Part shown: piece after piece, positions 25,781-60,830 of the stretch
Numbering within the stretch: the stretch's first letter is position 1
Layout of the letters: each line of letters opens with the position of its first letter
Origin: Patescibacteria group bacterium
Lineage (GTDB): Bacteria > Patescibacteriota > Patescibacteriia > Patescibacteriales > UBA12465
Direction: 5' to 3'
DNA: 64,000 nucleotides
NCBI GenBank assembly: GCA_041650775.1
Contig: JBAZKO010000001.1
Location: 1,030 to 65,029, forward strand
Translations under genes and position numbers: made by a program
The notes under the pieces: model-generated
The model's input: only the letters and a program-made list of their open reading frames with translations
Told to the model about the DNA's origin: nothing
The model's database searches: none

Positions 25781-25823
25781 ATTTTTACGGTTAAAATAAA
25801 CTTTAATGATTAAATAAAATCCC

Positions 25824-45114: not shown

Positions 45115-46211
45115 TTCAAAGTATTTTTGTCTAATATTCTATTATTAAATTTCGTCCAAGTAACTTCGTTATATATAGCTAAACCAATGGCGTCTAAACC
45201 GGCGACACTTAAATGTAAATTGTCGCCATAATCATAGGCGGATAGAAGAGTATCAGCGATAGCAGGATCCATCAAGACAGGGTAAGTATCAACTACGTAA
45301 TCTATCCCCGTAGCAGTATTTTTAATCCAAGTATTTATAGTTTGCAAATTAGCTAATCTGCCAGAAGTGTAACCCGAGCTCCCCTTGAATGGGCTAAGGG
45401 TTAAGGCAACTACCTTCAACCCGGTATTATGCGCTGCGGTATACATTGCCTGGAGATTTGATTCAATGGCGGTATTGTCAACATCATATATCACATCAAC
45501 AATTCCGCCCCAAATAATCACGTATTCAGCATCAAGATTACTTAATATGTCATCGTTAAATCTAGCTAGCATTTGCGCAGTATAATTTCCTCCGATTCCA
45601 AAATTATTGCCATTCCATTTCTTCCCTAAAAGTGATAATAAACTATTTAAATAAGCATGATTGGTGGTATTGAAAGCAGTCAAACTATCTCCGATAGAAT
45701 ATATTTGATGAACTTGATTTGCAAATGTAGACGAATTAACTTTGATATAACTCAAATCTTTATTACTGATGCCAAGCCCTAATTTTTTCATTGTATTATA
45801 AGCCTCGGGGCCATCCTTTAAATAGTGCAAACTTCCATCAAATCCCACATAATAGGCCTCGCCCCTGGACTCCACTTGGAGAAAAATCCTCCCTTTTTGT
45901 TTTATTGCCAAATTTTTATTATTGTTAATTTTTTCTAAATCGGCATTTGTTATGCCCACGCCGAAACTCCGCATTATATTATAAGCATCACCCCCATTCC
46001 TCATATAATATCTCTCCGTCGTCGTTGGGTGGACATACCAGGCTTCACCATTATTTTCCACCTGAAGCAATATTCTACCTCTTAAGTGGTTACTCAGCGA
46101 TTCGGCTTTTAGCGGTATGGTTGGAGTGATTAATATGATAATAAATACCAACCCTTTAAAAATGCCTGATAATATATTTAAATATTTTTTACCTCGCATA
46201 AGATTTAACAA
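45111..46211 (-). CDS. Secreted SGNH/GDSL hydrolase with two N-terminal GRILL-type repeats
   Basis: Signal/TM segment, then tandem modules at aa 45-153. SGNH blocks: IYSIGDSLTAF (block I), GIGGNY (II), IIWGGIVD (III) and DNLHLS (V, DxxH). Confidence 0.75.
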   Translation of the reverse strand: MLNLMRGKKYLNILSGIFKGLVFIIILITPTIPLKAESLSNHLRGRILLQVENNGEAWYVHPTTTERYYMRNGGDAYNIMRSFGVGITNADLEKINNNKNLAIKQKGRIFLQVESRGEAYYVGFDGSLHYLKDGPEAYNTMKKLGLGISNKDLSYIKVNSSTFANQVHQIYSIGDSLTAFNTTNHAYLNSLLSLLGKKWNGNNFGIGGNYTAQMLARFNDDILSNLDAEYVIIWGGIVDVIYDVDNTAIESNLQAMYTAAHNTGLKVVALTLSPFKGSSGYTSGRLANLQTINTWIKNTATGIDYVVDTYPVLMDPAIADTLLSAYDYGDNLHLSVAGLDAIGLAIYNEVTWTKFNNRILDKNTLK

Positions 46212-46219
46212 AGTAAATA

Positions 46220-49006
46220 TTAATATTTTTTATTTTTCCTCCTCCAACTATAAATTAAATAACCCAGACAATTAAATAAAGTTAGGCTGGTAATAAATAA
46301 TCCGATATAAAATAATCTCTGCGGCCAAAATTCAATAATCAATTCCATATCATAACTACCATCAGCATTTTTGTGGCAATTATTCGTTGGGGTGCAAATC
46401 TTATCAGTATCAATCAGCCAGCTATTAGCGTAACTATTAGCCAACAAATGATCAGTGTTATCAGCTACCGGCTGTTTGAACCAAGTCTCATAGAAATGAC
46501 CGGTGGATAAGTTATTATTTTGGATAGTGCCTTGAATATTTTTAGAGATAAAATCAATTTTATATTTTTCAAGATAATCCAAATTCTCTTTGTTGTCCTC
46601 AAATTTTTTATGTTTTATAACCCGCTCCACCCCATTTCCCAAATCAGTGATTAACCCCTGAGTTATAAAATAGTCAACTTCATCGCGACTGGCCTGATCA
46701 TCGCTATTCCCGTCCAAAACTTTATAATCAACTAACTTTATTTCATCAACTTTATTTCCAACATTTCTATTACCTAAATATACTTTCCAGCCGTCATGAA
46801 AAGATTCACCAAAAATCAAGGGAAAACTTTTCCGAGCATGATGAACGACAACGCGATATTTAATCGGATTAATCTTTCTGAATTCAAGTACTGGTGACTC
46901 AGACTCCTGTTCGCGCGATATCTTATCATAATAATTTATCTTTTTATTCAAATCAAATTTTAATTCGTTTAATCTAATATTATTATCAACTAATTCTTTT
47001 TTTTGTTTCTTAGCCAACAAATTATCTTTTTCCAAATCAGAGGAAGTTATTCGTGTTTCCAGATCACCAATCTCAATTTTAATCTTCCGACAAACATCAT
47101 TCTCCTCCCCTATATTAATATTATTGCTAGATATTAAAGCACCGAGTTTATCAAGACCCATTTGATTATTCTGATTTTGTTCTTGGAAATAAACAGCGGA
47201 ACGGATTTGATAACAAGGATTAAAAACAATATCCGAAAGTCTATTAATTGAACCAGAGGATATTATTATAGATTTAGTGGTGTAAAAAGTAGGCAAAAAA
47301 TAGTCGTTCTTGAATAATTTAATAGAACCAGATTCCCACTTACTCATTTTCAGTGAAAAAAGTTCATTTAATTCTGTTATATTTTCTTTTTCTTTAAAAC
47401 CAAAGGAGGGCACGATATCGGCGTTAATTAAAATCTTTCTAATGTTAAAAATGCTTAGACTATTTTCTACATTCTCATTGGAAAAATTATTATAAATTAT
47501 GTCAAATTTGCTACCCCAATAAGTAGCAACAAAGGATTTATTTAGAGCCAGCATTATTGGATCCATACCTCGATAGTACTTATTACTACCATGATTCAAC
47601 ATAGTAATCTGATAGTTAAGTGAACCGGGTAAAGATAATAATCGATAATCAAGCTTATCATTATTTATAACTTGTCTGACTTGCTGATACTCAGTTTTAT
47701 CAATAAATTTTCTAGTAACGAAATCGACTTTATTTAAACTAAAATCAGGAATAAAGTTTAATGTCAAAAATGGTATACTACAAACAACTAAATACCCACC
47801 CAGAAGATAAAAATTAAACCGCCCTTTCTTTTGGATCATGGCGAATACCAATGTCAATGTAAATATAAAGGCTAGCAAAACACCAAATTTTTCCCAAGGA
47901 CTTTTAAAAATATAGAAAAGCGGCGCATAGTTCATTAAAAACATGTAGATGTTTGCGAACGGATTGTTAGCGCCTTTTGTTAAAAATAGAACAATTAAAA
48001 ACGTAACTAAAACGACAATTTTAGCTTTTTGCCATTTTTGATTTTTTATAAATAAAGATCCGGCAATAATCAACAAAGGAATATATAATATTATTTTAAC
48101 AAAATTATTATCGTAAAATTGTACGATAGAAGAGTTATAATAATAACTGGGAAAAATAAATGATCCTAAAAAACGAAGTGATAACAATTGGCTCATCATT
48201 GATCCGAAACCGCTACTACTATTAATCCAATTGATAGCGATATCTCTTGTATAAAAAATATGAGCATCAAAAAATGCAAATTTAAAAAAAGGCAATAACC
48301 ACCAAAAATTAAATAATACAAAACTTAGTTCTAAAATAACAAAATTCATCAAAATTCTTTTCGCTTTTAATTTATTCTCTTGCAGATAAGAAATTATGAT
48401 GAGCGACATTAACAAAAAAATATGGAAAATCGCAAAATAAGGGATGCCTGCAAAGGAAAAAGAAACTAAGGCAGTAAAAATTCCGAAATAAATAAATAAC
48501 TTCTTGTAATTTAGAAAATATTTATAGAGAATACTAAACGTAATCGGCAAGACAAATAACAGCGCCAAGTTCCAGAATGTCTGTCCATAAAGATGAATAG
48601 CCGAGAAAGGGTTAAAAATGTAAAAAAGACTAATTAAAATCGATGTCTTTAACTCAATTTTTAAACATTTATCCAATAAAAAAAACATCGCTATAAACGG
48701 TAGAAAATAAATCAAAAAGACGCTAATTGTATTAACTGTTTTAACAGACATTCCGATGTTATATAAAAAATCGAAAAAATCAAATATCCCAACAGGGAAA
48801 TTCACTAATGAATTGGGCGCGCCAAGTCCGCCAGTTAAAGGTAGCCAAGTGTGCCCATATAGATTTTTTACCAAACTTACATCTAAAAAGTAATTCCCTT
48901 CTCCTCCTAATATTAAAAAATTATTTGAAAAAATTGTTATTATAGTTAAAAAGAATATAATAACAGCCCCAATAAAAATATTTTTCTTGTTTATTAATCT
49001 ATTCAT
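46220..49006 (-). CDS. Giant polytopic membrane protein (928 aa) with an ectodomain of about 480 aa and a C-terminal TM anchor (possible GT-C-fold enzyme)
   Basis: At least 12 TM helices in aa 1-420, a coiled-coil stretch (LEKDNLLAKKQKKELVDNNIRLNELKFDL), and a terminal TM segment LFYIGLFITSLTLFNCLGYLIYSW. Very AT-rich. Confidence 0.45.
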   Translation of the reverse strand: MNRLINKKNIFIGAVIIFFLTIITIFSNNFLILGGEGNYFLDVSLVKNLYGHTWLPLTGGLGAPNSLVNFPVGIFDFFDFLYNIGMSVKTVNTISVFLIYFLPFIAMFFLLDKCLKIELKTSILISLFYIFNPFSAIHLYGQTFWNLALLFVLPITFSILYKYFLNYKKLFIYFGIFTALVSFSFAGIPYFAIFHIFLLMSLIIISYLQENKLKAKRILMNFVILELSFVLFNFWWLLPFFKFAFFDAHIFYTRDIAINWINSSSGFGSMMSQLLSLRFLGSFIFPSYYYNSSIVQFYDNNFVKIILYIPLLIIAGSLFIKNQKWQKAKIVVLVTFLIVLFLTKGANNPFANIYMFLMNYAPLFYIFKSPWEKFGVLLAFIFTLTLVFAMIQKKGRFNFYLLGGYLVVCSIPFLTLNFIPDFSLNKVDFVTRKFIDKTEYQQVRQVINNDKLDYRLLSLPGSLNYQITMLNHGSNKYYRGMDPIMLALNKSFVATYWGSKFDIIYNNFSNENVENSLSIFNIRKILINADIVPSFGFKEKENITELNELFSLKMSKWESGSIKLFKNDYFLPTFYTTKSIIISSGSINRLSDIVFNPCYQIRSAVYFQEQNQNNQMGLDKLGALISSNNINIGEENDVCRKIKIEIGDLETRITSSDLEKDNLLAKKQKKELVDNNIRLNELKFDLNKKINYYDKISREQESESPVLEFRKINPIKYRVVVHHARKSFPLIFGESFHDGWKVYLGNRNVGNKVDEIKLVDYKVLDGNSDDQASRDEVDYFITQGLITDLGNGVERVIKHKKFEDNKENLDYLEKYKIDFISKNIQGTIQNNNLSTGHFYETWFKQPVADNTDHLLANSYANSWLIDTDKICTPTNNCHKNADGSYDMELIIEFWPQRLFYIGLFITSLTLFNCLGYLIYSWRRKNKKY

Positions 49007-49015
49007 TTGTAAATT

Positions 49016-49489
49016 TTAATTTATCATCTTAATAATTTTAGCCGGAACTCCGGCCACAACTGAATAATCCGGCACATCTTTTGTAACCACGCTTCCTGCG
49101 GCCACAACCGAATGTTTTCCAATTGAAACACCTGGCAATATTATCACGTTTGCACAAATCCATGATCCTTTGCCAATGAAAACAGGCTTAGATTCGGATC
49201 CTTGAGACACGATATCTAGGTTCCTATTTTCATATATATGATTTTCGGTATATATTTTAACACCATGAGCCAATAAGACATCACTCTCTATCACCAATCC
49301 GCCATTTCCATTAATCACCGTACCAAATTGAATAGTAATATTATCGCCGACGGAAATACCCCGCAGTCCGCTTATGAAACAACTACTGGAAACCGCGAAC
49401 GACTTGCCGGTTCTTTTTAGAAAAAACGAGTAAAAAAAACCTCGGGTATAATAACTCGTCTTAATAAGAAAGTAAATAATTTTTTGCAT
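49016..49489 (-). CDS. Hexapeptide-repeat (LbH) acetyltransferase
   Basis: Repeated [LIV]-G-x4 turns (VGDNITIQ, IGKGSWICANVIILPGVSIGKHSVVAAGSVV). 157 aa. Confidence 0.8.
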   Translation of the reverse strand: MQKIIYFLIKTSYYTRGFFYSFFLKRTGKSFAVSSSCFISGLRGISVGDNITIQFGTVINGNGGLVIESDVLLAHGVKIYTENHIYENRNLDIVSQGSESKPVFIGKGSWICANVIILPGVSIGKHSVVAAGSVVTKDVPDYSVVAGVPAKIIKMIN

Positions 49490-49505
49490 AAGACTCTTTA
49501 GATTA

Positions 49506-50393
49506 TTAATATTTCTTACAAATAAATGTTAAATCCTCATTGCTAAAAAATTTAAAAAGTGGATATAAAGGATAAATCAAAAATTTTATTGGTGATTTTC
49601 TAATTGACCAAAATAAATCAAGTGGATAATCATAAAATTCATTTTTTATACTAACAACTTTTAATTTATTTCTTGCGCAAGCTTTATAGATAGTACTCCT
49701 ATTGGGGATATTTAAATGCCTAGGGGAATCAAGATGAAACCAGTTTTCTTTTCCAAATCTAAATCCCAAACTTTTGTTATTAGGAACTTGAAAAACTAAA
49801 ATACCGTTGTCTTTTATTATTTCCCGTGCTTTTTTAAATAAACTCATGGGCTTTTCTAAGTGTTCCATGACATGCCATAATGTTATAACATCAAATTTTT
49901 TTTCACCGAAATTTATTAGCTCTACAGGCTTATTATAAACATCAATTTTTTTTCTTCTACATATTTCTACTCCTTCAGGATTTATTTCTATACCGTTTTT
50001 TTCAAAAATATCCGAATCTAAACTCAACAAAAACCCTCCCCGGCCACAACCAATATCCAAAATAGAAAGTTTTTCTCTGCCCTTAAAATACCTACGAATA
50101 TATTTTTCTTTAATTTTAGAAAATAAAAACTTATATAAAGACGCCCAGCAACGATTGGTAGACTTGTTTTCTCCATTCTCTAAATAATAACTAACCTCGT
50201 AATACTTTTCATAATAGTTATCACCTACTTCAATGTTGGGAATAAACAAGCATCCACAGTCCAAACATTTATATACGGGAAATCTTTCCTTTTTTTCTAC
50301 TATATTTTTCCCATGGGTATTGAAAGATGAAAAGGAATACTTCGTATCTTCGCTACTGCAGAATCTACATTTATTTGGCATTTTTACATTCAT
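49506..50393 (-). CDS. Class I SAM-dependent methyltransferase with an N-terminal CxxC...CxxC zinc ribbon
   Basis: CRFC...CLDCGC, then ILDIGCGRGGF (motif I). Alternative start at 50381. Confidence 0.8.
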   Translation of the reverse strand: MNVKMPNKCRFCSSEDTKYSFSSFNTHGKNIVEKKERFPVYKCLDCGCLFIPNIEVGDNYYEKYYEVSYYLENGENKSTNRCWASLYKFLFSKIKEKYIRRYFKGREKLSILDIGCGRGGFLLSLDSDIFEKNGIEINPEGVEICRRKKIDVYNKPVELINFGEKKFDVITLWHVMEHLEKPMSLFKKAREIIKDNGILVFQVPNNKSLGFRFGKENWFHLDSPRHLNIPNRSTIYKACARNKLKVVSIKNEFYDYPLDLFWSIRKSPIKFLIYPLYPLFKFFSNEDLTFICKKY

Positions 50394-51204
50394 AGATAGT
50401 TATGTAAGAATTTTCAATTTCTTCTTTTTCAGACGTCAATTTATAATTTACCGCTAAAGCATTATTTTTGGATTCTCTACAAAAAAACAACTTCTTTAAA
50501 AAAACCGGTAAATGCCGTGCGATAAATCTAATAATTTCAAATTGGGAAATAAGCGATAATATTTTATCCTTCATCTTTCTACTTTTTTCCTCATACGACC
50601 ACCCGTTTTCTTTCATTTTTCTTAAAGACTCGTTATCTATTTGCCCATAGCACACAACACTTAAAAAATATTTCTCTAAAATTTCCGCTAATTCCATGGG
50701 GCGGTATTCATAAATATGAAAAGGCATAATAGGATGTTTTAATCCGCTGGAAGTAATATTTTTATTTACTGTCGCTAAAAAAAAGGTTCCTTCATTTTTT
50801 AATAAATTCTTAATATCTGTTAAATAATACTCACAATTTTCCCGATCTATATGCTCTATCACTTGAAAAGAAGTAATGACGTCATATTTTGTGAGAATGT
50901 TTTTATTAAAAGTGAACTCTAAATTCTTATTCTTATTATAAAAAAAAATATTTTTCTTGATAGTGTTCTTATCTATATCAAACCCGACAACAGCTCTTTT
51001 TGTAAATCTTGAAAGATACTCGGTGCCATACCCGCCGCCGCAACCATAGTCAAGAACGAAGTCCGTATCTTTAATCTTACTTTCAGCAAACTTATACGCA
51101 AATTGCAAAACAGCCTCTATTTCCTCAAACCTTGTATACAGAATCGGTCTTTCGCCAGTATTGATCAATTCTAAATAAATTTTACTAAGAATATTTCTCA
51201 TCAT
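50371..51204 (-). CDS. Class I SAM-dependent methyltransferase
   Basis: VLDYGCGGGYG (motif I) and FQVIEHI (post-II). Confidence 0.8.
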   Translation of the reverse strand: MMRNILSKIYLELINTGERPILYTRFEEIEAVLQFAYKFAESKIKDTDFVLDYGCGGGYGTEYLSRFTKRAVVGFDIDKNTIKKNIFFYNKNKNLEFTFNKNILTKYDVITSFQVIEHIDRENCEYYLTDIKNLLKNEGTFFLATVNKNITSSGLKHPIMPFHIYEYRPMELAEILEKYFLSVVCYGQIDNESLRKMKENGWSYEEKSRKMKDKILSLISQFEIIRFIARHLPVFLKKLFFCRESKNNALAVNYKLTSEKEEIENSYITIYECKNAK

Positions 51205-51213
51205 ATCGCTGAT

Positions 51214-52023
51214 TTAAAAAATATTAGATTTAGAGACATTCCTTGCCACCTTACGCATTATAATAAAATGATGGTGCGAAAATAGCGAGAGCGGAGTTCG
51301 GGATATGGTAGCATCAAGAAGAGCGAGCGGGCGTGTTATAATATTAGCAATTTTTTGCAATACGCCGGGGAAATGTTCAGGAAAAAAATCCGTCATCGCA
51401 CAAAACACCGGCTCAAAAGACGATGAAAACTTTTTGAGCAATTCTTTCCGCGAGAACAAAATTTCATGACTCCGCACAAGAAACTCAGTAAGTGCATATC
51501 TATTTGGTGTTCTGGATATAACGATTAGACCGGATGGTTTAAGCACTCGGGTCATCTCAGTAATAACCTTATCTAATATCTGTGAGGGGACATGCTCAAT
51601 GACAGCATGGACAAAAATATGATCAAATTGTGCATCCGTGAAAGGGATATGGGTACCATCAAAATAGTTAAAATTTAAATTAATTGAACAGTCAGTAATA
51701 TTTTTCCAAAGAGTCATCTGTGATGATTTACCAGCGGTCTTAAAGACATCTTGTATTTCCTCGCCTACATCATAAATATCAATGGCTTCCACTAGATATC
51801 CCATCTTAGATAAAACAAAACTTGTGAATCCTGAGCCGCAGCCGAAATCTAAAATTCGTATATTCTTATCTTCACCTGCGAGTGAAGCAAATTTTGAAAA
51901 AATAGGGTAAAAACCATTAACATATGGATAGGAATGAAAAAGAAAATTCTCTTTAACAAACCCACTCTGATTAAGAATTTCGACAAATTGAGCGAATAGT
52001 TTACTAAAATATTTTTTATTCAT
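51214..52023 (-). CDS. Class I SAM-dependent methyltransferase
   Basis: ILDFGCGSGFT (motif I) and HAVIEHV. Confidence 0.8.
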   Translation of the reverse strand: MNKKYFSKLFAQFVEILNQSGFVKENFLFHSYPYVNGFYPIFSKFASLAGEDKNIRILDFGCGSGFTSFVLSKMGYLVEAIDIYDVGEEIQDVFKTAGKSSQMTLWKNITDCSINLNFNYFDGTHIPFTDAQFDHIFVHAVIEHVPSQILDKVITEMTRVLKPSGLIVISRTPNRYALTEFLVRSHEILFSRKELLKKFSSSFEPVFCAMTDFFPEHFPGVLQKIANIITRPLALLDATISRTPLSLFSHHHFIIMRKVARNVSKSNIF

Positions 52024-53240
52024 AATAAAGTTTTTTCAAAAACGGCAGAATATATCTTCTTTGCACGAATATTCCAGTCCCATACTTCAACTACTAAATC
52101 GCGCGCCTCTTTTGAAATTTTATCATATAAATCATTATCTTTCAGTAGTTTAAAAATATTTTCTGCAAATTGTTTTTTATTACCCTGGGCAGTCTTAATA
52201 AATCCCTTAGGATAATACGTCCTCAGGGCTTCCAGATCAAAACTCACACCCGGCAAACCCCAAGCCATACCTTCAGCTGAAGCCATGCCTCCACTATCAT
52301 AGATTGCCGGATGAAGTATGAGTTTTGACTCTTTAAAAACATTATATTTTTCCGGTCCATCCATAAAACCCAATAAATTAATATTATCTTCTAGTTTTAA
52401 ATTTTTTATTTTTTCCCTAACTTTATCTTCCAAAGGACCAATCCCTATCATAGCTAATTTAGCCCCCTTTTCCAGTTCGCAAACTCTTTTCCAAATATCA
52501 ATAAGTTCTAAAACTCCTTTTTGATAATGGAATCTGCCAACAAAACAAGCATCATACATTCTTTTGTTAACTGGAATAATATTATTTTCTTTAAAATATT
52601 TTTCTGATTCTGTGATATCCACCCCTCCCTGGACAACAATAATTTTTGACCTATTTCTTTTTTTAGTTATAAATTTTTTTACGTCCGGATCTGAGGTGAC
52701 AAAAACATAGTCAGCATATTTTTTTACAAAAAAATATGATAATCTTTGCGTCAACCAATAGAAAAATCCTCTTAACCAATTTTTTCCTTTATAAGGAGAG
52801 TTCCCATCTAGAGGATTCGGCGCGAATAAATAATAACCCGCAATCCATTTAATTTTCGGATTCTTAAGCTTAGTATATAGCGCAGGAACAAAATCTGAAT
52901 AGAAATCAGAGGTGGAATAGATGTAATCAATATTTTTAATTTTCTCCCAATTATTTTTTAAGGCTACTATGCCCTTATAAGCTCTCCGAAAAGTACATTT
53001 TATAAAATCTACTAATGAGTTATTAAAAGATACTACTACATCTGTCTGGATAAACTCTATTTCATCGTTAAATATTTCATGAATATAGTTGGTTATTGTT
53101 TCTGGTCCGACTAAAATTATCTCTGATTTATTTTTCCAATTTTTTAGAAGCTCGGTCCAAATACGAGTTCCGCCGGAATCAATGAAAACTCTACTATTAG
53201 ATTTACCCCCAAAACCATTTACAATAAAGGCTATTTTCAT
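52020..53240 (-). CDS. Glycosyltransferase family 4 (GT-B)
   Basis: C-terminal GGMASAEGMAWGLPGVS (E-x7-E-like). 406 aa. Confidence 0.8.
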   Translation of the reverse strand: MKIAFIVNGFGGKSNSRVFIDSGGTRIWTELLKNWKNKSEIILVGPETITNYIHEIFNDEIEFIQTDVVVSFNNSLVDFIKCTFRRAYKGIVALKNNWEKIKNIDYIYSTSDFYSDFVPALYTKLKNPKIKWIAGYYLFAPNPLDGNSPYKGKNWLRGFFYWLTQRLSYFFVKKYADYVFVTSDPDVKKFITKKRNRSKIIVVQGGVDITESEKYFKENNIIPVNKRMYDACFVGRFHYQKGVLELIDIWKRVCELEKGAKLAMIGIGPLEDKVREKIKNLKLEDNINLLGFMDGPEKYNVFKESKLILHPAIYDSGGMASAEGMAWGLPGVSFDLEALRTYYPKGFIKTAQGNKKQFAENIFKLLKDNDLYDKISKEARDLVVEVWDWNIRAKKIYSAVFEKTLL

Positions 53241-53305: not shown

Positions 53306-54601
53306 TTATTTTAAAAATTCTCCAAAAGATTTAATCACATAATTAAGCATTTCTTTTGTCAGCCCCGGATAAACACCAATCCAGAAAGTATTATTCATGA
53401 CTTCATCGGTATTTTTCAAATCCCCGGAAATTCTGTAATTAATATTATAATTTTTAAAATAAGGCTGTTTTGTTACGTTACCAGCAAACAACAAACGCGT
53501 ACCGATTTTTTTATCATTTAAATATTTTAATAATCCTTCTCTAGAAAATCCTGCCTCTGGTTTGATTGTTAATAAAAATCCAAACCAACTCGGATCCGCT
53601 TCGCTATTCCAACTGGGCAAAATAAAATACTTTTCTAATTTTTTAAAAGCGGCATAAAGATAAGCGAAATTATCTTTTCTTTTTTGAATAAATTTAGGAA
53701 GTTTATCAAGCTGAACCAACCCCAAAGCGGCCTGAATGTCAGTAATCTTCAGGTTATAACCGATTTCACTATAAATGTATTTATGGTCATAGCCTTGGGG
53801 TAAATCACCAAGTTTCCAGTTAAAACGATTCTTGCAAAAATTATCAACCCCGGTCGAACAGACGCAATCACGACCCCAATCTCGCAATGATCTCACTATC
53901 TTACTTAAGATGGGGTCATTAGTCAAAATCGCCCCTCCTTCCGCCATAGTAATATGATGCGCGGGATAAAAACTGCAGGTTGATATATGACCAAAAGTTC
54001 CGGTAAATTGTCCATTATATTTTGAACCTAAGGCATCACAGTTATCTTCAATGAACCAGAGATTATATTCGTCACAAATTTTCCTTAATTCAGCTACCTC
54101 AAAAGGGTTACCGAGAGTGTGGGCAATAAAAACTGCTTTAGTCTTAGGAGTGATGGCTTTTTTAATAGATTCCAGAGATGCATTATAAGTTCCCAGCATA
54201 ACATCCACAAAAACTGGGATAAACCCGTTCTGAATAATCGGATTAACGGTAGTCGGAAAACCAGCGGCAACAGTAATCACTTCGTCCCCCTTTTTAAGAC
54301 GTTTCTCGTCCGGCAATCGAAAAGAAGTAAGAGCGCTAAGTGCCAATAAATTAGCGGAAGAACCGGAATTAACGGCGACACAAAACTTTAAACCCAAAAA
54401 ATCTGCCAGACTTCTTTCAAATTCAGCGGCGTATTTCCCTTCTGTCCACCAGCCCTCCATAACTGCGTTAACCATATTAATCAATTCTTTTTCATCAAAA
54501 ACTTTTCCCGAAACAGGGACTAGTGATTCTCCGGGGATAAAAAGCTTATGGGAAAACCGGGACTTAAATATTTTTTTGATTTCTGAATGTAAAGCGTCCA
54601 T
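53306..54601 (-). CDS. ddhC: CDP-6-deoxy-L-threo-D-glycero-4-hexulose-3-dehydrase (E1; RfbH/DdhC/AscC family)
   Basis: Long collinear blocks match Salmonella RfbH as I recall it: GDEVITVAAGFPTTVNPIIQNGFIPVFVDV, SFYPAHHITM (His replaces the PLP Lys), GYNLKITD, DPSWFGF, IGTRLLFAGN and FWIGVYPGLT. The Fe-S motif C-X57-C-X1-C-X7-C is present by direct count. Confidence 0.9.
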   Translation of the reverse strand: MDALHSEIKKIFKSRFSHKLFIPGESLVPVSGKVFDEKELINMVNAVMEGWWTEGKYAAEFERSLADFLGLKFCVAVNSGSSANLLALSALTSFRLPDEKRLKKGDEVITVAAGFPTTVNPIIQNGFIPVFVDVMLGTYNASLESIKKAITPKTKAVFIAHTLGNPFEVAELRKICDEYNLWFIEDNCDALGSKYNGQFTGTFGHISTCSFYPAHHITMAEGGAILTNDPILSKIVRSLRDWGRDCVCSTGVDNFCKNRFNWKLGDLPQGYDHKYIYSEIGYNLKITDIQAALGLVQLDKLPKFIQKRKDNFAYLYAAFKKLEKYFILPSWNSEADPSWFGFLLTIKPEAGFSREGLLKYLNDKKIGTRLLFAGNVTKQPYFKNYNINYRISGDLKNTDEVMNNTFWIGVYPGLTKEMLNYVIKSFGEFLK

Positions 54602-54610
54602 AATAATATT

Positions 54611-55489
54611 CTACAAATGTTCTAAAAATAATTTTTTATCAAAATTCGGTAAAATTGTCTTATAGTATTCCACTAATTTAGCAATGGCCTCTTTTAAATC
54701 AATAAACTCCAATTCAGGAAATTCTTTTTTTAACTTGCTTATATCACAGGTGTACTCATTATTAAGCCCATCTTTAAATATTTTAATCGGCAAATCCTTA
54801 TTAGTAACTTCCAAAATCATCCTGGCAATAGTCAAAAGATCAACCCGCTGGCCGCTGCCGACATTATAAAAAACATCCTTCGGCTTGTTCTCTATAATTC
54901 TATCTATAACCTTGGCGGCGTCATTAATATAAAGATAATCAAAATAAACGTTCTGATTAATCGTTAATGGGAGGTTCAGCAGGGCCTTACAAATTGAATT
55001 AGAAATAAATCTGGTTTTAAAATCTTCATATTTTCCGAATACCCCGAAAAAACGAAGATGAGTAATAAAATCTGTGCCGACCGCCAATTTAGCCATCGTG
55101 AATTTCGCCAAGCCATATTCATCTTCAGGAATATTACGACCGAAGTCTTTTTCATTAACCAGGCGCAAACTTTGAGATTTATCATATTCCGCTCCAGAGC
55201 CGAAAACAATCATCCTATTAAAATATTCCTTAGCGGCCAACAGATTATAAAAAATAATCAAGTTACTCTTTAAAATGTCCAGCTGAATATTACTTTTCCG
55301 GTTGCCGCCGGTTGCCGCCGTATGCAAAATCAATTCCGGGCGATTAATTTTTATATATTCAAAAACAGACCGAGAATCCAAAAGATTCAGTTCCGACCGC
55401 CGCGGTGCCAATATTTCATATTTATCCTTCAAAATTTCCAGGATATTCTTACCGATAAAACCATTGCCGCCAGTTAATAAAATTTTCAT
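54611..55489 (-). CDS. NAD(P)-dependent extended SDR (sugar-nucleotide ketoreductase/epimerase; YerF- or RfbJ/RfbS-like role)
   Basis: MKILLTGGNGFIGKNI and YGLAKF (YxxxK). 292 aa. Lies between the ThDP enzyme and E1. Confidence 0.65.
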   Translation of the reverse strand: MKILLTGGNGFIGKNILEILKDKYEILAPRRSELNLLDSRSVFEYIKINRPELILHTAATGGNRKSNIQLDILKSNLIIFYNLLAAKEYFNRMIVFGSGAEYDKSQSLRLVNEKDFGRNIPEDEYGLAKFTMAKLAVGTDFITHLRFFGVFGKYEDFKTRFISNSICKALLNLPLTINQNVYFDYLYINDAAKVIDRIIENKPKDVFYNVGSGQRVDLLTIARMILEVTNKDLPIKIFKDGLNNEYTCDISKLKKEFPELEFIDLKEAIAKLVEYYKTILPNFDKKLFLEHL

Positions 55490-55496
55490 ACGAATT

Positions 55497-57242
55497 TTAT
55501 CGTAAAAATTTTTCTTTTAAGATCCTTAACATTTTCTTCTTCTCATCATCTAAGAATGGGGCTTGATTTTCAATTGATTCTCCATAGACAACCTTGGGCC
55601 GAAGTGTGGATTGCGGGCTTAATTCTACTTCAATAATCGCCGGACCCTGAAAGTTAATTATTTTATTATATAAATTAAAGCCAGTGGATTTTTTTATTTT
55701 AAAATATTTAATATCGTAGGCGCCAGCAATCTTTTTTATATTGGGGCAAGAATAACCAATAACCGTTGACTGATAATTCTTATCAAAATACTGATCTTGG
55801 AATTCTCTAACCATTCCCAGGGAGTTATTATTTAAAACGAATATTTTGATTGCCAGATTATTTAATTTTACGGTCTCCAGTTCTTGGATATTGACTTGGA
55901 AACCGCCGTCCCCCATAAAGGCATAAACTGGCCGAGTCTTACCACCGCAGTAAGCGCCGATTGACGCCGGTAAAGAAAAGCCCATCGCCCCCATGCCGCC
56001 GCTAAACATCAAGTTCTGTCCTTCTTTGATTTTCCATGATTGCGCCAACCACATCTGATTTTGCCCGACATCAGCTACGATTATAGAATTTTCCGACACC
56101 GCTTTTGAAAAATTACTAAAAAATAGGTTAGGATTACAATATCCATCCTCCTCTGAATATTTATCGTTAAAATTCTCCTCGACCGATTTAATAAAATCCA
56201 GCCATTTTGTCTTAATCTTAATTTCTAAATTGTCCAGGCTGTCAAAAAAAATATTCAAATCAGTATTAATGAAAAAATAATCCTTAAAATCGTCTTTCTT
56301 TGAAAACCCATCAATATCCACATGAAAAATCTTAGCTTGAGTGGCAAATAAATTCGGATTACCGGTCTGTCTCAAATCCAACCTTGAGCCCAAAACAATT
56401 ATTAAATCGGCATTAGCCAAGACGATATTAGCGCTCCGATTACCATAGGTACCGATAAAACCCGAATAATTATTCTGTTCGATAGCAATTTCTCCTAAAC
56501 CCAAAAGTGAACTTACTGACGGTAAGCTATTATTATTCAAGAAATTTTTCAACTTATCTTTTGTCTTAGAAATTTTTATACCATTACCAAATAAAACAAC
56601 CGGCGCCTTAGATTCTTCCAACAACTGCGACAATTTTTTAAAATCGGAATAAAGCCTGCCTCTCTCTTTGTCCTTTTCTTTATATTCTTCTGAATCAATG
56701 AATCTTTTGAGTGTTGCCGGTTCTATCTCAGCTGTTTGGACATTAAAAGGTATATCCAACAAAACAGGACCCGGACGATCAGTCTTCATTAAAAACAAAG
56801 ATTTTTCCAATTCATACAAAATCTCGTTTGGTTCTAAAATTAACTTGGCGTATTTAGTGATGCCTTTGACCATTTCCACGACATCCAGTTCTTGAAAACC
56901 ATTTTGTCTGACATTCTTACTGTTACGTAAATCCTTGGAGTTAACTTGTCCGGTAATGAATAAAGCTGGAGTTGAATCAAAATAACAACTTCCAATAGCC
57001 GTGACCATATTAGTTGCGCCAGGACCACTAGTAGAAATGGCGACGCCAAAATTTTTTCCAGAACGAGCATAACCTTCGGCCGCGAATCCGGCCGCTTGTT
57101 CATGTCGTGCCGGCAGACAATCGATCCCAGATAACCGACTGATTGAATCCTCTAAATTTGCAATCATGCCTCCAGTAAAATCAAAAACTATTCCAATGCC
57201 TTGGTTTTTTAAAAATTCAGCGATAAAGTCCGAACATTTCAT
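55497..57242 (-). CDS. Thiamine-diphosphate-dependent enzyme, acetolactate-synthase large-subunit family (YerE-like by context)
   Basis: N-terminal PYR domain (HEQAAGFAAEGYARSG...STSGPGATNM) and C-terminal ThDP motif GDGGFQVN...NNNSLGMV. 581 aa. Confidence 0.85.
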   Translation of the reverse strand: MKCSDFIAEFLKNQGIGIVFDFTGGMIANLEDSISRLSGIDCLPARHEQAAGFAAEGYARSGKNFGVAISTSGPGATNMVTAIGSCYFDSTPALFITGQVNSKDLRNSKNVRQNGFQELDVVEMVKGITKYAKLILEPNEILYELEKSLFLMKTDRPGPVLLDIPFNVQTAEIEPATLKRFIDSEEYKEKDKERGRLYSDFKKLSQLLEESKAPVVLFGNGIKISKTKDKLKNFLNNNSLPSVSSLLGLGEIAIEQNNYSGFIGTYGNRSANIVLANADLIIVLGSRLDLRQTGNPNLFATQAKIFHVDIDGFSKKDDFKDYFFINTDLNIFFDSLDNLEIKIKTKWLDFIKSVEENFNDKYSEEDGYCNPNLFFSNFSKAVSENSIIVADVGQNQMWLAQSWKIKEGQNLMFSGGMGAMGFSLPASIGAYCGGKTRPVYAFMGDGGFQVNIQELETVKLNNLAIKIFVLNNNSLGMVREFQDQYFDKNYQSTVIGYSCPNIKKIAGAYDIKYFKIKKSTGFNLYNKIINFQGPAIIEVELSPQSTLRPKVVYGESIENQAPFLDDEKKKMLRILKEKFLR

Positions 57243-57278
57243 AAAACGCTATTTTAAAAGCTCGACTTGATAAATAAA

Positions 57279-58241
57279 TTATCTATGCCAATACTTCTTA
57301 TACCATTCAAAGGTTTCTTTTACTCCCTCTTCAAAAGTATAATTTGATTTCCAACCCAAAACCTCAGCCGCTTTCTCGTAATTAAGGCTCTGGAAAGGAA
57401 TCTCATTCTTCTGATTATTACTTATTTTATATTTACATTTTTTATCAACCACTTCGGAAACTTTTTCTATTAACTGTAAAACAGAAAAATTATAACCGGT
57501 ACTGAAATTAAAAGCCTCACCTCTGGCTTTATCAATATTTTCCATCAGCAGAATATAGCCGTCAGCGACATCCTTAACATAGACATAATCACGAACAAAA
57601 GTTCCGTCGCTTCTTATTTCCAGAGTTTCATCGAAAATAAGAGCCTTCATTATTCCCGGTATAATACGATTAATGTTCAGATCTCCCGGACCGTAAATAT
57701 TCCCGAAACGGCTTACCGCCACCGGCAAACCATAGGTCTTAGCGTAGGTTCTGGTTATCAGATCCGCGCAAGATTTAGAGACGTCATAAGGATGATCTCC
57801 GGCCATGGCCGCGACTTCCGTGGCGTTATCGCATTTTTTTCCATACGCTTTATCACTAGAAGCAACAACTATTCCTTTTATACTCGGACAATGGCGCGCC
57901 GCCTCTAAAATATTAACCGTTCCCATAATATTAGTTTCCAATGCTTCCCTAGGATTAATAAACGCGGTCGGAACTATCGGCTGAGCGGCGATGTGAAAAA
58001 TATATTCAATTTCATATTTAGAGACAACATCAAACACTCGATTATAATCCTTAATATCACAAATAGCGGAGATAGTCTTTTGATCTAAATTCTTCTCCAT
58101 AAAGTAAGAACGAAAATCTTTTGACCGTCTGGTAATAAATACCGCGGCTTCCTGCTCGACCAGCTTTTCGGCAATATGTCCACCAACTAAACCGGTCGCG
58201 CCGGTAATAAGGATATTCCTACCTTTAAAGTAATTACTCAT
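57279..58241 (-). CDS. NAD-dependent sugar-nucleotide 4,6-dehydratase (probable CDP-glucose 4,6-dehydratase)
   Basis: ILITGATGLVGGHI, SSDKAYG and HPYDVSKSCADL resemble the RfbG/DdhB blocks TSDKCY and DPYSNSKGCAEL. Confidence 0.6.
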   Translation of the reverse strand: MSNYFKGRNILITGATGLVGGHIAEKLVEQEAAVFITRRSKDFRSYFMEKNLDQKTISAICDIKDYNRVFDVVSKYEIEYIFHIAAQPIVPTAFINPREALETNIMGTVNILEAARHCPSIKGIVVASSDKAYGKKCDNATEVAAMAGDHPYDVSKSCADLITRTYAKTYGLPVAVSRFGNIYGPGDLNINRIIPGIMKALIFDETLEIRSDGTFVRDYVYVKDVADGYILLMENIDKARGEAFNFSTGYNFSVLQLIEKVSEVVDKKCKYKISNNQKNEIPFQSLNYEKAAEVLGWKSNYTFEEGVKETFEWYKKYWHR

Positions 58242-58382
58242 ACGTTTTATTATTTAGGCGAATTTCTATATGATTAAGCTAATTTCTACTCGGAGTTATT
58301 GCTATTTTTATGTATTCTTTAATAAATTGCTTATTTAAATGATAAATCATTTTCGTTTTAAAATCAATAAAAAAGACCCTAA

Positions 58383-58874
58383 CTAAAATTTAGATAGGGC
58401 CATCGGTATAACCACCATTTTATGATGATCTACAGTCTCTACCGGCAAAGCATCAATTAAAAACCATGCACCATTGCTATTGGGCAATGTTTCTACCTCA
58501 CACGCAAATATCAAATGAACAACATGCCCTCTTTTTTCGTGAAGATTATTGTCAAAACCGGCGAATTTTTTATTTAAAATTTTTCCGATATCTTCCTTTT
58601 CTTCCAGCCGTGTGAATGCACTTTCTGTCGTTTCCCCCGTCCTTAAAAAGGTGCCGGGACAATGCCAAAGCCCTCCATAAGATTCTTCTTCTTTTCTTTT
58701 TGAGAGGAATATTTCCTTACCTTTAGGCGTGTTTCTTAATATAACCGCTTCTATAGCTATTCCAATCGTAATGCGCGCTAATTCATTAAATAATTCTGTC
58801 CCATATGGTAACTTAGGGCTAACTCTTTTTAAAGCTTTAGCCGCATTTTTATTATCATTATCGTAAATGTTCAT
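58383..58874 (-). CDS. NUDIX-like hydrolase
   Basis: GGLWHCPGTFLRTGETTESAFTRLEEKEDIG approximates the Nudix box GX5EX7REUXEEXGU, but with imperfect spacing. Confidence 0.45.
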   Translation of the reverse strand: MNIYDNDNKNAAKALKRVSPKLPYGTELFNELARITIGIAIEAVILRNTPKGKEIFLSKRKEEESYGGLWHCPGTFLRTGETTESAFTRLEEKEDIGKILNKKFAGFDNNLHEKRGHVVHLIFACEVETLPNSNGAWFLIDALPVETVDHHKMVVIPMALSKF

Positions 58875-59043
58875 TTTTCTTTTCCTTTCCTTTTTAAAGA
58901 ATTTATTTTTTCATTTCTAACTTAGCATAATACCATATCTAATAAATTATGTCAACAAAAACCATTTATACTGCTGCTAGTCTAGTCCTTAATAATAAGT
59001 ATTTTTACCCAATATTAAACATAAAAAATCTATCTTTAAAAAC

Positions 59044-59829
59044 TTAATCCCAAACTTTCCAAAATGGGTCATTAATCCAATATTTATTTAATTCCTCAAC
59101 TTCTTTATAGGTATCCATGCATTTCCATTTGCCCTCGTGTTCAAACATGGACAATTCTCCCTTTAGCGCCAAGGGGTCAAAGGCCTGTTCAATCATTGTA
59201 TTAGGTTTAATTAAATCTAAAAATTCATTTTTAAAAACCATGAAACCGCCATTAATTAAATCCTGCGATTGCGCCTTGATAGTGTCAGTAATACCGGTTT
59301 GGTAAAAATCTCTAATTTTCTTAGATTCCTTATCATAGTCCAGCAGGCCAAAACGACCTTCCCGACGCGCGCCAGTTATCGTGGCAATCGTATTCTGGCT
59401 TTTATGAAAAGCCACTAATTTATTTATATCGATATCGGCGACGCCGTCGCCATAAGTCACCATAAAATCCTCATCACCGATATATTTTTTTAGTTTTCTC
59501 ACTCTTTCTCCAGTCAATGTCTCTAAACCGGTTTCAACGAATGTTATCTTAAAGTCATCGCAATCATTATTATGGAAAGTCACTTCATTATCTTTAGTAC
59601 TTAGGGTAAAGTTATTCAAAAGAGTTCGCCAATGAAGAAAATATTCCTTTATCATATCGCCGCGATAACCTAAGGCAAGGATAAATTCATTATATCCATA
59701 ATAGGAATAGATTTTCATGATATGCCATAAAACCGGCTTGCCACCAACACTAACTAGTGGCTTTGGTTTGAATTCTGTTTCCTCTTTCATTCTAGTTCCT
59801 TGTCCGCCGCAAAGAATTATTGTTTTCAT
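59044..59829 (-). CDS. ddhA: Glucose-1-phosphate cytidylyltransferase
   Basis: MKTIILCGGQGTRMKEETEFKPKPLVSVGGKPVLWHIMKIYS, TYGDGVADIDI, INGGFMV and FEHEGKWKCMDT are collinear with Salmonella RfbF as I recall it. Confidence 0.9.
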   Translation of the reverse strand: MKTIILCGGQGTRMKEETEFKPKPLVSVGGKPVLWHIMKIYSYYGYNEFILALGYRGDMIKEYFLHWRTLLNNFTLSTKDNEVTFHNNDCDDFKITFVETGLETLTGERVRKLKKYIGDEDFMVTYGDGVADIDINKLVAFHKSQNTIATITGARREGRFGLLDYDKESKKIRDFYQTGITDTIKAQSQDLINGGFMVFKNEFLDLIKPNTMIEQAFDPLALKGELSMFEHEGKWKCMDTYKEVEELNKYWINDPFWKVWD

Positions 59830-60830
59830 AAAATATTACTTAAATATTTTTTTATAAAAAACCAACCGTAGCTTAATGTGAAAATAAAACACATCAAAGG
59901 GTGTAGGAACCAGGCGATATCGCGTACAAAAAGATAGCCCTTGACTGCCCGTAAAAACGGCGGAATAAACGTTAGATTGGCAAATATCATCAAAATCAGA
60001 CGGATTGTGTCTTTTTTTTGAAACACACCATATTCTCTTTTTATTTTATCAGCGGAATAGACCTTGGCCCATAATAACCTCCTTTTTAAAAAAGAGAGAA
60101 AACCAATATTTATATAATGGATTATATGCCTATTCTTGACAAAAGCAAAAGTATCATAGCCTTTTCGTATTAAACTGACACACATATCAATATGGGCGAC
60201 ATTTTCTTTATAATCCATTTTGTCCAGCATCTCTTTTCTTATTAAGAATCCATTGGCGCCGATAGTCGGAATTTTTGCGATATCCGCTACAAATTTAACT
60301 TTATAATATTCCCCCCAATCTTGGGCGTCGCCAAAAGAATGCCAAATCAAATTATTATCATACGGCCCACGATCGGCTTTCCCTAAACCCACAGCTATCG
60401 GATCACATCCGCCAATTAGAGCAAAATAACGAGATAAAATCGGATCGGTTTTTCTGTAGCCATATCTTAAAGTCTCACAAGCCACGATTTCTTGATTCTC
60501 GAATGTCTTTACCATCTCGGATAAAGCATCTTTTTCCTGAAAACGATTATCAGCAGAAAAGAAAAGAATAAAATCAGATTGCGCTGTTTGTAACGCTATC
60601 CCCCCTCTAATATTAGGCCAATCTCTTAATTCCGGTCGAGAAATTACAGTTGCTTCATATTTGTGAGCAATTTTTAAAGTTCCGTCGCTAGACCCGCCAT
60701 CGACAAGCAAAATATCAATTAAATTTTGATCATAATCTTGATTTCTGATAGAACTTAAACAATCCTCCAAAATCAATTCATCATTATAGGAAATCATTGC
60801 GACTGTGATGGAATAATCTTTTTTTATCAT
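59826..60830 (-). CDS. Glycosyltransferase family 2 with a C-terminal membrane region
   Basis: ITVAMISYNDE...LLVDGGSSDGT and FFSADN (DxD-like), with TM helices at the C-terminus. Overlaps ddhA by 4 nt. Confidence 0.8.
   Translation of the reverse strand: MIKKDYSITVAMISYNDELILEDCLSSIRNQDYDQNLIDILLVDGGSSDGTLKIAHKYEATVISRPELRDWPNIRGGIALQTAQSDFILFFSADNRFQEKDALSEMVKTFENQEIVACETLRYGYRKTDPILSRYFALIGGCDPIAVGLGKADRGPYDNNLIWHSFGDAQDWGEYYKVKFVADIAKIPTIGANGFLIRKEMLDKMDYKENVAHIDMCVSLIRKGYDTFAFVKNRHIIHYINIGFLSFLKRRLLWAKVYSADKIKREYGVFQKKDTIRLILMIFANLTFIPPFLRAVKGYLFVRDIAWFLHPLMCFIFTLSYGWFFIKKYLSNIL

Follow-up and report, generated by a model that had tools for sequence, protein, structure and literature searches.

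Gene content and organization of the locus

The DNA considered in this work is a stretch of 64,000 nucleotides (referred to here as the window) from a Patescibacteria group bacterium, i.e. a member of the candidate phyla radiation (CPR), for which an original prediction, made from the sequence alone, had proposed a pathway to a cytidine diphosphate (CDP)-activated, branched-chain 3,6-dideoxyhexose similar to yersiniose. The list of open reading frames (ORFs) bears out the gene arrangement that was claimed: six co-directional ORFs of the expected sizes and in the expected order, all of them on the minus strand, are present at positions 53306-59829, and their exact coordinates are given in Table 1. 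Starting from the high-coordinate end, they encode a glucose-1-phosphate cytidylyltransferase (DdhA), a NUDIX-like protein, a 4,6-dehydratase, a thiamine diphosphate (ThDP) enzyme, a short-chain dehydrogenase/reductase (SDR) and the 3-dehydrase E1 (DdhC). For five of these six genes the results of family scans and PDB searches agree with the labels that had been given to them; the sixth, the NUDIX-like gene, shows only a weak match to PF00293. The intergenic gaps are short from the dehydratase onward (36 bp, then 7 bp between the stop codon of the ThDP gene and the start of the SDR gene, then 9 bp), and those on either side of the NUDIX-like gene are long (169 and 141 bp). The nearest relative of the ThDP enzyme (79% identity) comes from a 'Parcubacteria group bacterium'. 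Based upon the evidence described below, five of the encoded enzymes quite probably form a route to a CDP-activated 3,6-dideoxyhexose that is branched at C-4 as in yersiniose and intended for a surface glycan. Gene identities, family placement, conserved synteny and the retention of catalytic and cofactor residues are seen in the sequences themselves; every chemical step of the route is inferred from them, and the same applies to the source of the electrons, the keto acid used as donor and the stereochemistry.

Table 1. Genes of the proposed branched-sugar block and of the adjoining glycan genes in the window (TM, transmembrane segments; GT, glycosyltransferase).
Feature	Coordinates	Strand	Remarks
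DdhA/RfbF-like glucose-1-phosphate cytidylyltransferase	59044..59829	-	261 aa
NUDIX-like protein, degenerate Nudix box	58383..58874	-	163 aa; lineage-specific insertion, probably outside the pathway
Short-type nucleoside diphosphate (NDP)-glucose 4,6-dehydratase, predicted CDP-specific	57279..58241	-	320 aa
YerE-like ThDP (probably also flavin adenine dinucleotide, FAD) carboligase, predicted	55497..57242	-	581 aa
Extended SDR, predicted NADPH-dependent ketoreductase, positional analogue of YerF	54611..55489	-	292 aa
E1 (DdhC/RfbH), pyridoxamine 5'-phosphate (PMP)- and [2Fe-2S]-dependent CDP-4-keto-6-deoxyglucose 3-dehydrase	53306..54601	-	431 aa
GT2 glycosyltransferase	59826..60830	-	PF00535, 62 bits; 35% GC; stop codon overlaps ddhA start by 4 bp; in low-GC island
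GT4 glycosyltransferase, three class-I S-adenosylmethionine (SAM) methyltransferases, hexapeptide O-acetyltransferase, 928-aa membrane protein (about 11 TM), GDSL esterase or acyltransferase	45111..53240	-	family scans, TM count; 29-38% GC; in low-GC island
Wzx-type flippase (426 aa) and MmpA-like membrane protein (570 aa, about 11 TM)	42138..45114	-	PF01943, PF13440; NF053599

Affiliation of the ThDP enzyme with the YerE-like family

The 581-aa ThDP enzyme contains three TPP domains identified by Pfam, and its top matches among the NCBIfam models are those for the large subunit of acetohydroxyacid synthase (AHAS), all of which score under their cut-offs (TIGR00118, 413.5 bits vs 538; NF006524, 419 bits vs 738). 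In searches of the PDB its best match is entry 5AHK (371 bits), with about 281 bits for the plant and Escherichia coli AHAS structures, and in terms of sequence identity it is 36% identical to the YerE orthologue of Yersinia canariae and 36-37% identical to characterised members of the YerE-like family, in comparison to 28-32% for biosynthetic AHAS. The sequence of 5AHK is 83-100% identical to proteins from Pseudomonas protegens and 68% identical to proteins from several Yersinia species, and its orthologues in P. protegens and Y. canariae are located within gene clusters of the order ddhD-ddhA-ddhB-ddhC-yerE-yerF. Structures of the P. protegens YerE and of JanthE exist (PMC12247030), that of JanthE being PDB 8RPH (PMC12188165), and the YerE-like enzymes have been characterised as ketone-accepting carboligases which act on CDP-3,6-dideoxy-4-keto-glucose (PMC12247030, PMC9306805).

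The position of the window enzyme relative to AHAS was examined in a neighbour-joining tree based on 88 sequences, which included, among others, the window enzyme, its homologues from 80 genome loci, 5AHK, the E. coli proteins IlvB, IlvI, Gcl and PoxB, and Arabidopsis AHAS. In this tree a clade with 100/100 bootstrap support unites the window enzyme with 5AHK and the homologues from all 80 genome loci and sets them apart from AHAS, Gcl and PoxB, and thus the enzyme falls where the original prediction had expected it. The members of the YerE-like clade are also distinguished by a sequence feature that we have used as an operational marker of our own, viz. a six-residue insertion followed by the motif RQxGFQE; this feature is present in all 83 members of the clade, inclusive of the window enzyme and 5AHK, and in the alignment it is not found in Arabidopsis AHAS, IlvB, IlvI, Gcl or PoxB. 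The catalytic Glu of the HEQ motif and the GDG...NN motif are both retained in the window enzyme, and Val478, which is the counterpart of V479 in the published numbering of the P. protegens YerE, is conserved together with the LGMVR motif surrounding it. An ilvN partner, which had been named beforehand as a mark of a bona fide acetolactate synthase, is found neither in the window, where the best match in tblastn searches with E. coli IlvH and IlvN has an E value of 0.88, nor in the 80 related loci, where these searches gave no match. These results support the placement of the enzyme within the YerE-like family, and carboligase activity is predicted for it.

Distribution of related loci and a metagenome control

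When one genome of each GTDB species was scanned, more than 552 relatives of the ThDP enzyme were identified, of which the best 80 (38-73% identity) were used for the locus counts, and 82 loci enter into the counts of gene neighbourhoods. The source taxa are Bacteroidota, Bacillota, Campylobacterota, Elusimicrobiota, other CPR lineages and two archaeal bins. Within 8 kb of the ThDP gene, a DdhA homologue is present in 66 of the 82 loci and an E1/DegT homologue in 68, and extended SDRs are carried by 75 of them. The YerE-like cluster type is thus a common one. In the closest relatives, viz. loci L002 and L003 (from a Parcubacteria bin, 79% identity) and L005 (73% identity), the order ddhA-dehydratase-ThDP-SDR-E1 is identical to that in the window. 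The conserved unit in these relatives is therefore a five-gene core rather than the six-gene block that had been anticipated, as the NUDIX-like gene is missing from all three.

A control that had not been planned was provided by a metagenome scan, in which the single ThDP protein used as the query retrieved a mixture of YerE-like and AHAS-like genes, the relatives being at most 45% identical. The RQxGFQE signature is carried by 32 of the ThDP genes, and of these 21 have ddhA or E1 nearby and none has ilvN; the 48 genes lacking the signature show the reverse pattern, with ilvN/H nearby in 36 and ddh genes in none.

E1 and the predicted genes for CDP-4-keto-6-deoxyglucose

The assignment of the last gene of the block to E1/DdhC is sound. 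Its protein scores 688 bits with NF011936, for which the cut-off is 423, and 548 bits with the PDB entries 3BCX/3BB8, and it is 54% identical to its counterpart in Y. canariae. In the alignment with 3BCX it retains His220, in place of the lysine that binds pyridoxal 5'-phosphate, as well as all of the [2Fe-2S] ligands (C193, C251, C253 and C261, corresponding to the motif C-X57-C-X1-C-X7-C). Because His220 and the four ligands are kept, the window E1 would need electrons and should not be considered an enzyme of the ColD type. The complete DdhA-D set that makes the acceptor sugar in Yersinia pseudotuberculosis is not present in the window, which contains no DdhD, a point that is considered below.

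The DdhA-like protein obtains 263 bits with TIGR02623, which is below the cut-off of 300, yet this is by far its best model. It matches the Salmonella typhi glucose-1-phosphate cytidylyltransferase (PDB 1TZF) from end to end with 207 bits, the next PDB match being 63 bits, and its identity to the DdhA of Y. canariae is 41%. For the dehydratase, the motif strings SSDKAYG and PYDVSKSCADL reported for it are present, including the S-D-K (Asp-Lys pair) and YxxxK motifs, and its best family is TIGR02622 (209 bits) although the score again lies below the cut-off (278); the model for dTDP-glucose dehydratase gives 162 bits, and the CDP-glucose 4,6-dehydratase structure 1RKX is matched with 136.6 bits.

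At 320 aa, this dehydratase is shorter than the classical DdhB proteins (~357-360 aa), and it shows 27% identity to the DdhB of Yersinia. Dehydratases of this short type are found in 11 loci, inclusive of the window, and none of these 11 also carries a classical ~360-aa DdhB. In L005, a classical DdhB of 356 aa (L005:8916-9997) is present instead of the 320-aa short type, despite the fact that its ThDP enzyme and DdhA are 73% and 84% identical to those of the window. As the two types are mutually exclusive and a close relative uses the classical one, the short and the classical dehydratases are expected to do the same job, and the difference between the window and L005 is, by these comparisons, a non-orthologous replacement of the dehydratase within one CPR sub-lineage.

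The SDR in the position of YerF

The SDR matches PF01370 with 98.8 bits. It contains a TGGNGFIG motif, an Arg-Arg pair following strand beta-2 (PRRSELNLLD), and the motifs GSGAEY and YGLAK, which align with SSGAAY and YGAAK of YerF (the Ser/Tyr/Lys catalytic set). Its N-terminus is of the NADPH type and very similar to that of GDP-fucose synthase, and in the alignment the Cys109/His179 epimerase pair of GDP-fucose synthase is not present. We read this protein as a plain ketoreductase, predicted from these motifs.

The genuine YerF, whose gene follows yerE directly in Yersinia and Pseudomonas, is a 310-aa PF01370 protein. In pairwise BLAST comparisons with the Yersinia and Pseudomonas YerF, the window SDR gives E values of 3e-5 and 1e-3 over partial stretches (25-28% identity), and a BLAST search of YerF against all locus ORFs gave no match in the window at 1e-3. 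The latter search identified true YerF types in L006-L010, L012, L029 and L069; clear orthologues encoded after the ThDP enzyme were seen in loci from Saccharibacteria, Paenibacillus, Nitrospirota and Zixibacteria. The subfamily to which the window SDR belongs (35-42% identity) is represented in 12 loci, among them those from Elusimicrobiota and Campylobacterota, by a gene downstream of that for the ThDP enzyme, which it directly adjoins in 10 of the 12; in Bacteroidota, a gene of a third SDR subfamily is located immediately upstream of the ThDP gene. Across the loci, at least three unrelated SDR subfamilies thus hold the YerF position, and in roughly 45 of the 82 loci the ThDP gene has an SDR gene other than that of the dehydratase at its side.

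The NUDIX-like gene

The NUDIX-like protein matches PF00293 with 25.8 bits, slightly over the cut-off of 21.1, and its Nudix box is degenerate, reading G-x5-GE-x7-RLEEKEDIG, with RLEEKEDIG in place of REUxEExGU (canonical box GX5EX7REUXEEXGU). Two roles as a core part of the pathway were considered for it, viz. that of a CDP-sugar hydrolase similar to Gmm and that of a 2,3-dehydratase similar to EvaA, the latter enzyme belonging to the Nudix superfamily. Its resemblance to E. coli Gmm is weak (pairwise E = 8e-6), and no Pfam match to the 2,3-dehydratase family was found. Both roles were rejected, since the gene is absent in the closest relatives (the 73-79% relatives L002, L003 and L005, where ddhA abuts the dehydratase gene) and its few homologues (45-54% identity) adjoin rpoD/dnaG in CPR-like contigs, i.e. 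housekeeping contexts rather than sugar genes. The inclusion of this gene in the block is therefore not upheld, and it is probably a lineage-specific insertion lying outside the pathway. Upstream of it, at 58927-58955 on the minus strand, there is a sigma-70-like site (TTGACA-17-TATTAT, extended TG; 11 of 12 positions matching), which is the best in an 8-kb region and is a consensus match only.

Proposed pathway and its alternatives

In the pathway proposed here, DdhA would convert glucose-1-phosphate and CTP into CDP-glucose, from which the short 4,6-dehydratase would form CDP-4-keto-6-deoxyglucose. The 3-hydroxyl group would then be removed by E1, by means of PMP and its [2Fe-2S] cluster, with two electrons supplied by a ferredoxin or flavodoxin system of general function, the genes of which would lie elsewhere. 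The YerE-like enzyme is predicted to decarboxylate a 2-oxo acid and to join the resulting acyl-anion equivalent to the 4-keto sugar at its C-4 position, after which the adjacent NADPH-type SDR would reduce the side-chain carbonyl, leading to a 1-hydroxyalkyl branch. The downstream GT4 enzyme would probably transfer the branched sugar, the methyltransferases and the acetyltransferase may decorate the glycan, and Wzx would export it. In contrast to the erwiniose cluster, this one has no gene for an aldolase, which makes pyruvate the likeliest donor. This yersiniose-like reading, which is also that of the original prediction, is supported by the clade to which the ThDP enzyme belongs, by the insertion signature, by the linkage to ddhA and E1 across phyla and by the metagenome control.

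There are, however, a number of observations which weigh against this reading, and the absence of a gene for E3 (DdhD) is foremost among them. No E3/DdhD, no FNR-like protein and no ORF with a ferredoxin motif was found in the 64-kb window in tblastn/BLAST searches with E3 queries from Flavobacterium, Yersinia and Pseudomonas, in a scan with a hidden Markov model of E3, or with a regular expression for ferredoxins, and the missing E3 is the main gap in the proposed pathway. The window is not alone in this respect: in the 64 loci with a complete Fe-S E1 (the window included), an FNR-type protein is present within 10 kb in 14 and in the other 50 there is none, and a co-occurrence analysis of the 82 loci found no alternative conserved reductase family. 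A precedent is provided by SpnQ, an Fe-S E1 homologue without E3, for which general pairs of a reductase with ferredoxin or flavodoxin do the work (PMC8987622). Since E3 is absent and the Fe-S ligands are nonetheless kept, this precedent points to a housekeeping electron donor encoded elsewhere. Where dedicated E3 genes do occur, they are mainly found in Sphingobacteriia, in Flavobacteriia and in the gammaproteobacterial reference loci.

The other observations of this kind concern the individual enzymes. The specificity for CDP is not certain, because both DdhA and the dehydratase score under the NCBIfam equivalog cut-offs, and in the PDB search of the dehydratase a GalE entry ties with 1RKX. 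The entry 5AHK is probably the published one for the P. protegens YerE (PpYerE), and the homology and synteny described above are consistent with this. The relationship of the SDR to YerF is remote and does not amount to orthology; what the SDR resembles are sugar 4-ketoreductases such as those of the RmlD and GDP-fucose synthase type, and its target carbonyl is therefore deduced from the position of its gene only. Of the proposed equivalence of the ThDP-SDR pair to YerE/YerF, the part which stands is therefore the location of the two genes between the dehydratase and E1, the 7-bp gap between them and the affiliation of the first with the YerE clade; orthology of the second to YerF does not. 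Lastly, the enzyme ErwE rejects pyruvate, indicating that donor specificity varies within the YerE-like family (PMC9306805).

The last two points bear on an alternative according to which the same pathway gives a branch of more than two carbons, or one that differs in some other way, owing to a donor other than pyruvate or to a different stereochemistry imposed by a reductase that is not YerF, in which case the product would be a new branched sugar and not yersiniose A or B. We regard this alternative as unlikely, although it is the best of those considered. It is in keeping with the use of C4-C8 donors by ErwE, MyGE and JanthE (PMC12247030, PMC9306805, PMC12188165), with the affiliation of the SDR to a subfamily other than that of YerF, and with the presence of three methyltransferase genes and an acetyltransferase gene downstream in the same orientation. 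However, no aldolase or other gene for making a keto acid is present, unlike the erwiniose cluster, which has ErwI/ErwJ, and Val478 (V479 of the P. protegens YerE) and the LGMVR motif are conserved.

Given that the nearest characterised relatives of the SDR are RmlD, GDP-fucose synthase and HldD, i.e. 4-ketoreductases and epimerases (E values of 1e-9 to 1e-6), one might also suppose that it reduces the ring ketone at C-4, as paratose or abequose synthase do, so that the main product would be an unbranched 3,6-dideoxyhexose and the ThDP enzyme would serve some other or minor role. This is very improbable, since the ThDP gene lies between the genes for the dehydratase and the SDR, 7 bp from the latter, and its conservation together with E1 and DdhA is tight across phyla; further, the flanking of the ThDP gene by a non-dehydratase SDR in roughly 45 of 82 loci is the same arrangement as that of YerF in Yersinia, and a reductase acting on the ring would draw on the very substrate that the ThDP enzyme uses. 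The last alternative, viz. that the ThDP enzyme is an ordinary AHAS for the synthesis of branched-chain amino acids which is present among the sugar genes by chance, has a negligible probability: although AHAS large-subunit models are its top NCBIfam matches (413-419 bits) and its homologues are labelled acetolactate synthase by JGI, this assignment was rejected because the scores (all of them under the cut-offs), the absence of ilvN/ilvH from the window and the 80 loci, the 100/100 bootstrap separation from AHAS, the YerE-type insertion and the control set, in which real AHAS loci have ilvN and no ddh genes, are all in agreement.

Comparison with known systems and significance

In comparison with the preferred, yersiniose-like reading, the best reference systems are the clusters for yersiniose A of Yersinia pseudotuberculosis O:VI and of P. 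protegens. The window has in common with both of them the predicted glucose-1-phosphate cytidylyltransferase and 4,6-dehydratase, an E1 that keeps His220 and the four Fe-S cysteines, an enzyme of the YerE clade and an extended SDR encoded directly downstream of it. It differs from them in lacking E3/DdhD, in its gene order (A-(NUDIX)-B-yerE-SDR-C, as opposed to D-A-B-C-E-F in the known clusters), in its short-type dehydratase, in having an SDR that is not orthologous to YerF, and in its CPR host. Because the host is a CPR bacterium, the O-antigen of lipopolysaccharide is unlikely to be the acceptor of the sugar. The logic of the pathway is nevertheless that of the known yersiniose route; besides the reductase, the dehydratase too is not orthologous to its counterpart there.

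Among the genomic analogues, the YerE-like clusters of Campylobacterota and Elusimicrobiota MAGs or isolates (e.g. L031, L037, L022 and L015) resemble the window in having an SDR of the same subfamily (36-42% identity) right after the ThDP gene and an Fe-S E1 with no E3 nearby, and in the tree the clade of their ThDP enzymes is located next to that of the CPR. However, unlike the window, they use the classical ~360-aa DdhB, and they are compared here as genomic analogues only. The loci from Saccharibacteria and Paceibacterota (L006-L010) also belong to CPR bacteria. Their ThDP enzymes are 48-53% identical to that of the window and form its sister group, and a DdhA gene is adjacent; but in these loci the 3-dehydratase, which is encoded on the opposite strand, keeps His220 and is without the three C-terminal Fe-S cysteines, and the SDR following the ThDP gene is of the true YerF type. 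Due to the absence of these cysteines, the 3-dehydratase of L006-L010 is ColD-like and independent of E3. As these loci carry a second version of the pathway, it recurs across the CPR in public metagenome-assembled genomes (MAGs).

Two enzymes of other systems should also be compared. SpnQ of the forosamine pathway of spinosyn is, like the window E1, a PMP- and Fe-S-dependent 3-dehydrase without a dedicated reductase gene (PMC8987622), but it acts on a dTDP-2,6-dideoxy substrate in a secondary-metabolite pathway of an actinomycete that has no ThDP branching step. The AHAS proteins (IlvB/IlvI/IlvG) share with the window enzyme the three-domain ThDP/FAD fold, the catalytic Glu and the GDG...NN motif; the window enzyme differs from them by its RQxGFQE insertion, its lack of a regulatory subunit and its separate clade.

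The original prediction had noted no description of such pathways in CPR bacteria, and in the searchable literature, which is limited, we likewise found no paper on a dideoxyhexose or CDP-glucose pathway in Patescibacteria/CPR. The novelty of the locus is mainly taxonomic. It is possible, though doubtful, that its product is a branched deoxysugar not yet described (on account of reduction by a non-YerF enzyme, its stereochemistry, the donor, or O-methylation/acetylation), displayed on the surface of a CPR episymbiont and deoxygenated at C-3 by an Fe-S E1 that lacks a dedicated E3. The surface chemistry of CPR/Patescibacteria is almost unknown although these cells live attached to hosts, and a rare branched dideoxy sugar would represent a concrete and testable surface determinant. 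In addition, the locus adds a divergent member to the YerE-like carboligases, a family valued for making chiral tertiary alcohols, and it draws attention to a common but unstudied architecture in which an Fe-S E1 occurs without E3 and several SDR subfamilies hold the YerF position. These results do not overturn current understanding, nor will they surprise a specialist, but they provide a useful annotation and a reasonable target for studies on CPR surface glycobiology and biocatalysis.

Surroundings of the locus and other observations

The block forms part of a low-GC island of ~16 kb (about 45.1-60.8 kb), in which the GC content is 29-39% in comparison to 45% elsewhere in the window, and all of the island genes share one orientation (Table 1). 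The presence of three methyltransferases and one hexapeptide acetyltransferase downstream of the block, as seen in family scans, agrees with the earlier suggestion that the product would be further methylated and acetylated. The genes for the flippase and the MmpA-like protein (whose match to NF053599, 95 bits, is under the cut-off of that model) are found just past the low-coordinate edge of the island in the same orientation, and they probably export or assemble the glycan. The locus as a whole looks like a surface-glycan gene cluster. The remainder of the window is housekeeping in nature, with a dcw cluster, rmlA and rmlD, cysS and tRNAs.

Several other genes of the window are of interest with regard to glycans. 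Genes for RmlD (dTDP-4-dehydrorhamnose reductase family), an RmlA-like nucleotidyltransferase and a GT2 enzyme at 24057-26723 (minus strand) constitute a second and separate deoxysugar module. A B12-binding radical SAM protein is encoded between two GT2 genes at 60868-62391 (minus strand; 50% GC, outside the low-GC island); its best family is HpnJ, with a score (140 bits) that is far under the cut-off, and it may modify a glycan or lipid. At 63426-64000 (minus strand) there is an ORF of 151 aa corresponding to the C-terminal part of a PgfS/ArnC-like polyprenyl-phosphate glycosyltransferase, and as the start of this ORF falls off the end of the window, the glycan locus may run past 64 kb. Just outside the glycan island, at 40106-41302 (minus strand), lies the gene for a 398-aa YDG-domain protein, which may be a surface protein.

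Two observations were made in the related loci. The archaeal MAG contigs L040 and L073 (Methanobacteriota and Methanotrichaceae) contain a YerE-like ThDP gene (41-42% identity) together with DdhA, a short-type dehydratase and an Fe-S E1 (54-59% identity), and, if the binning is right, they may represent a branched-sugar pathway in methanogens. In Arcobacter caeni (L019:11792-14278), a split transketolase, consisting of an N-terminal half followed by a protein with the pyrimidine-binding and C-terminal half, and a TylF-like methyltransferase are encoded between the YerE-like gene and an SDR gene of the window type; two different ThDP systems are therefore present in one sugar cluster.

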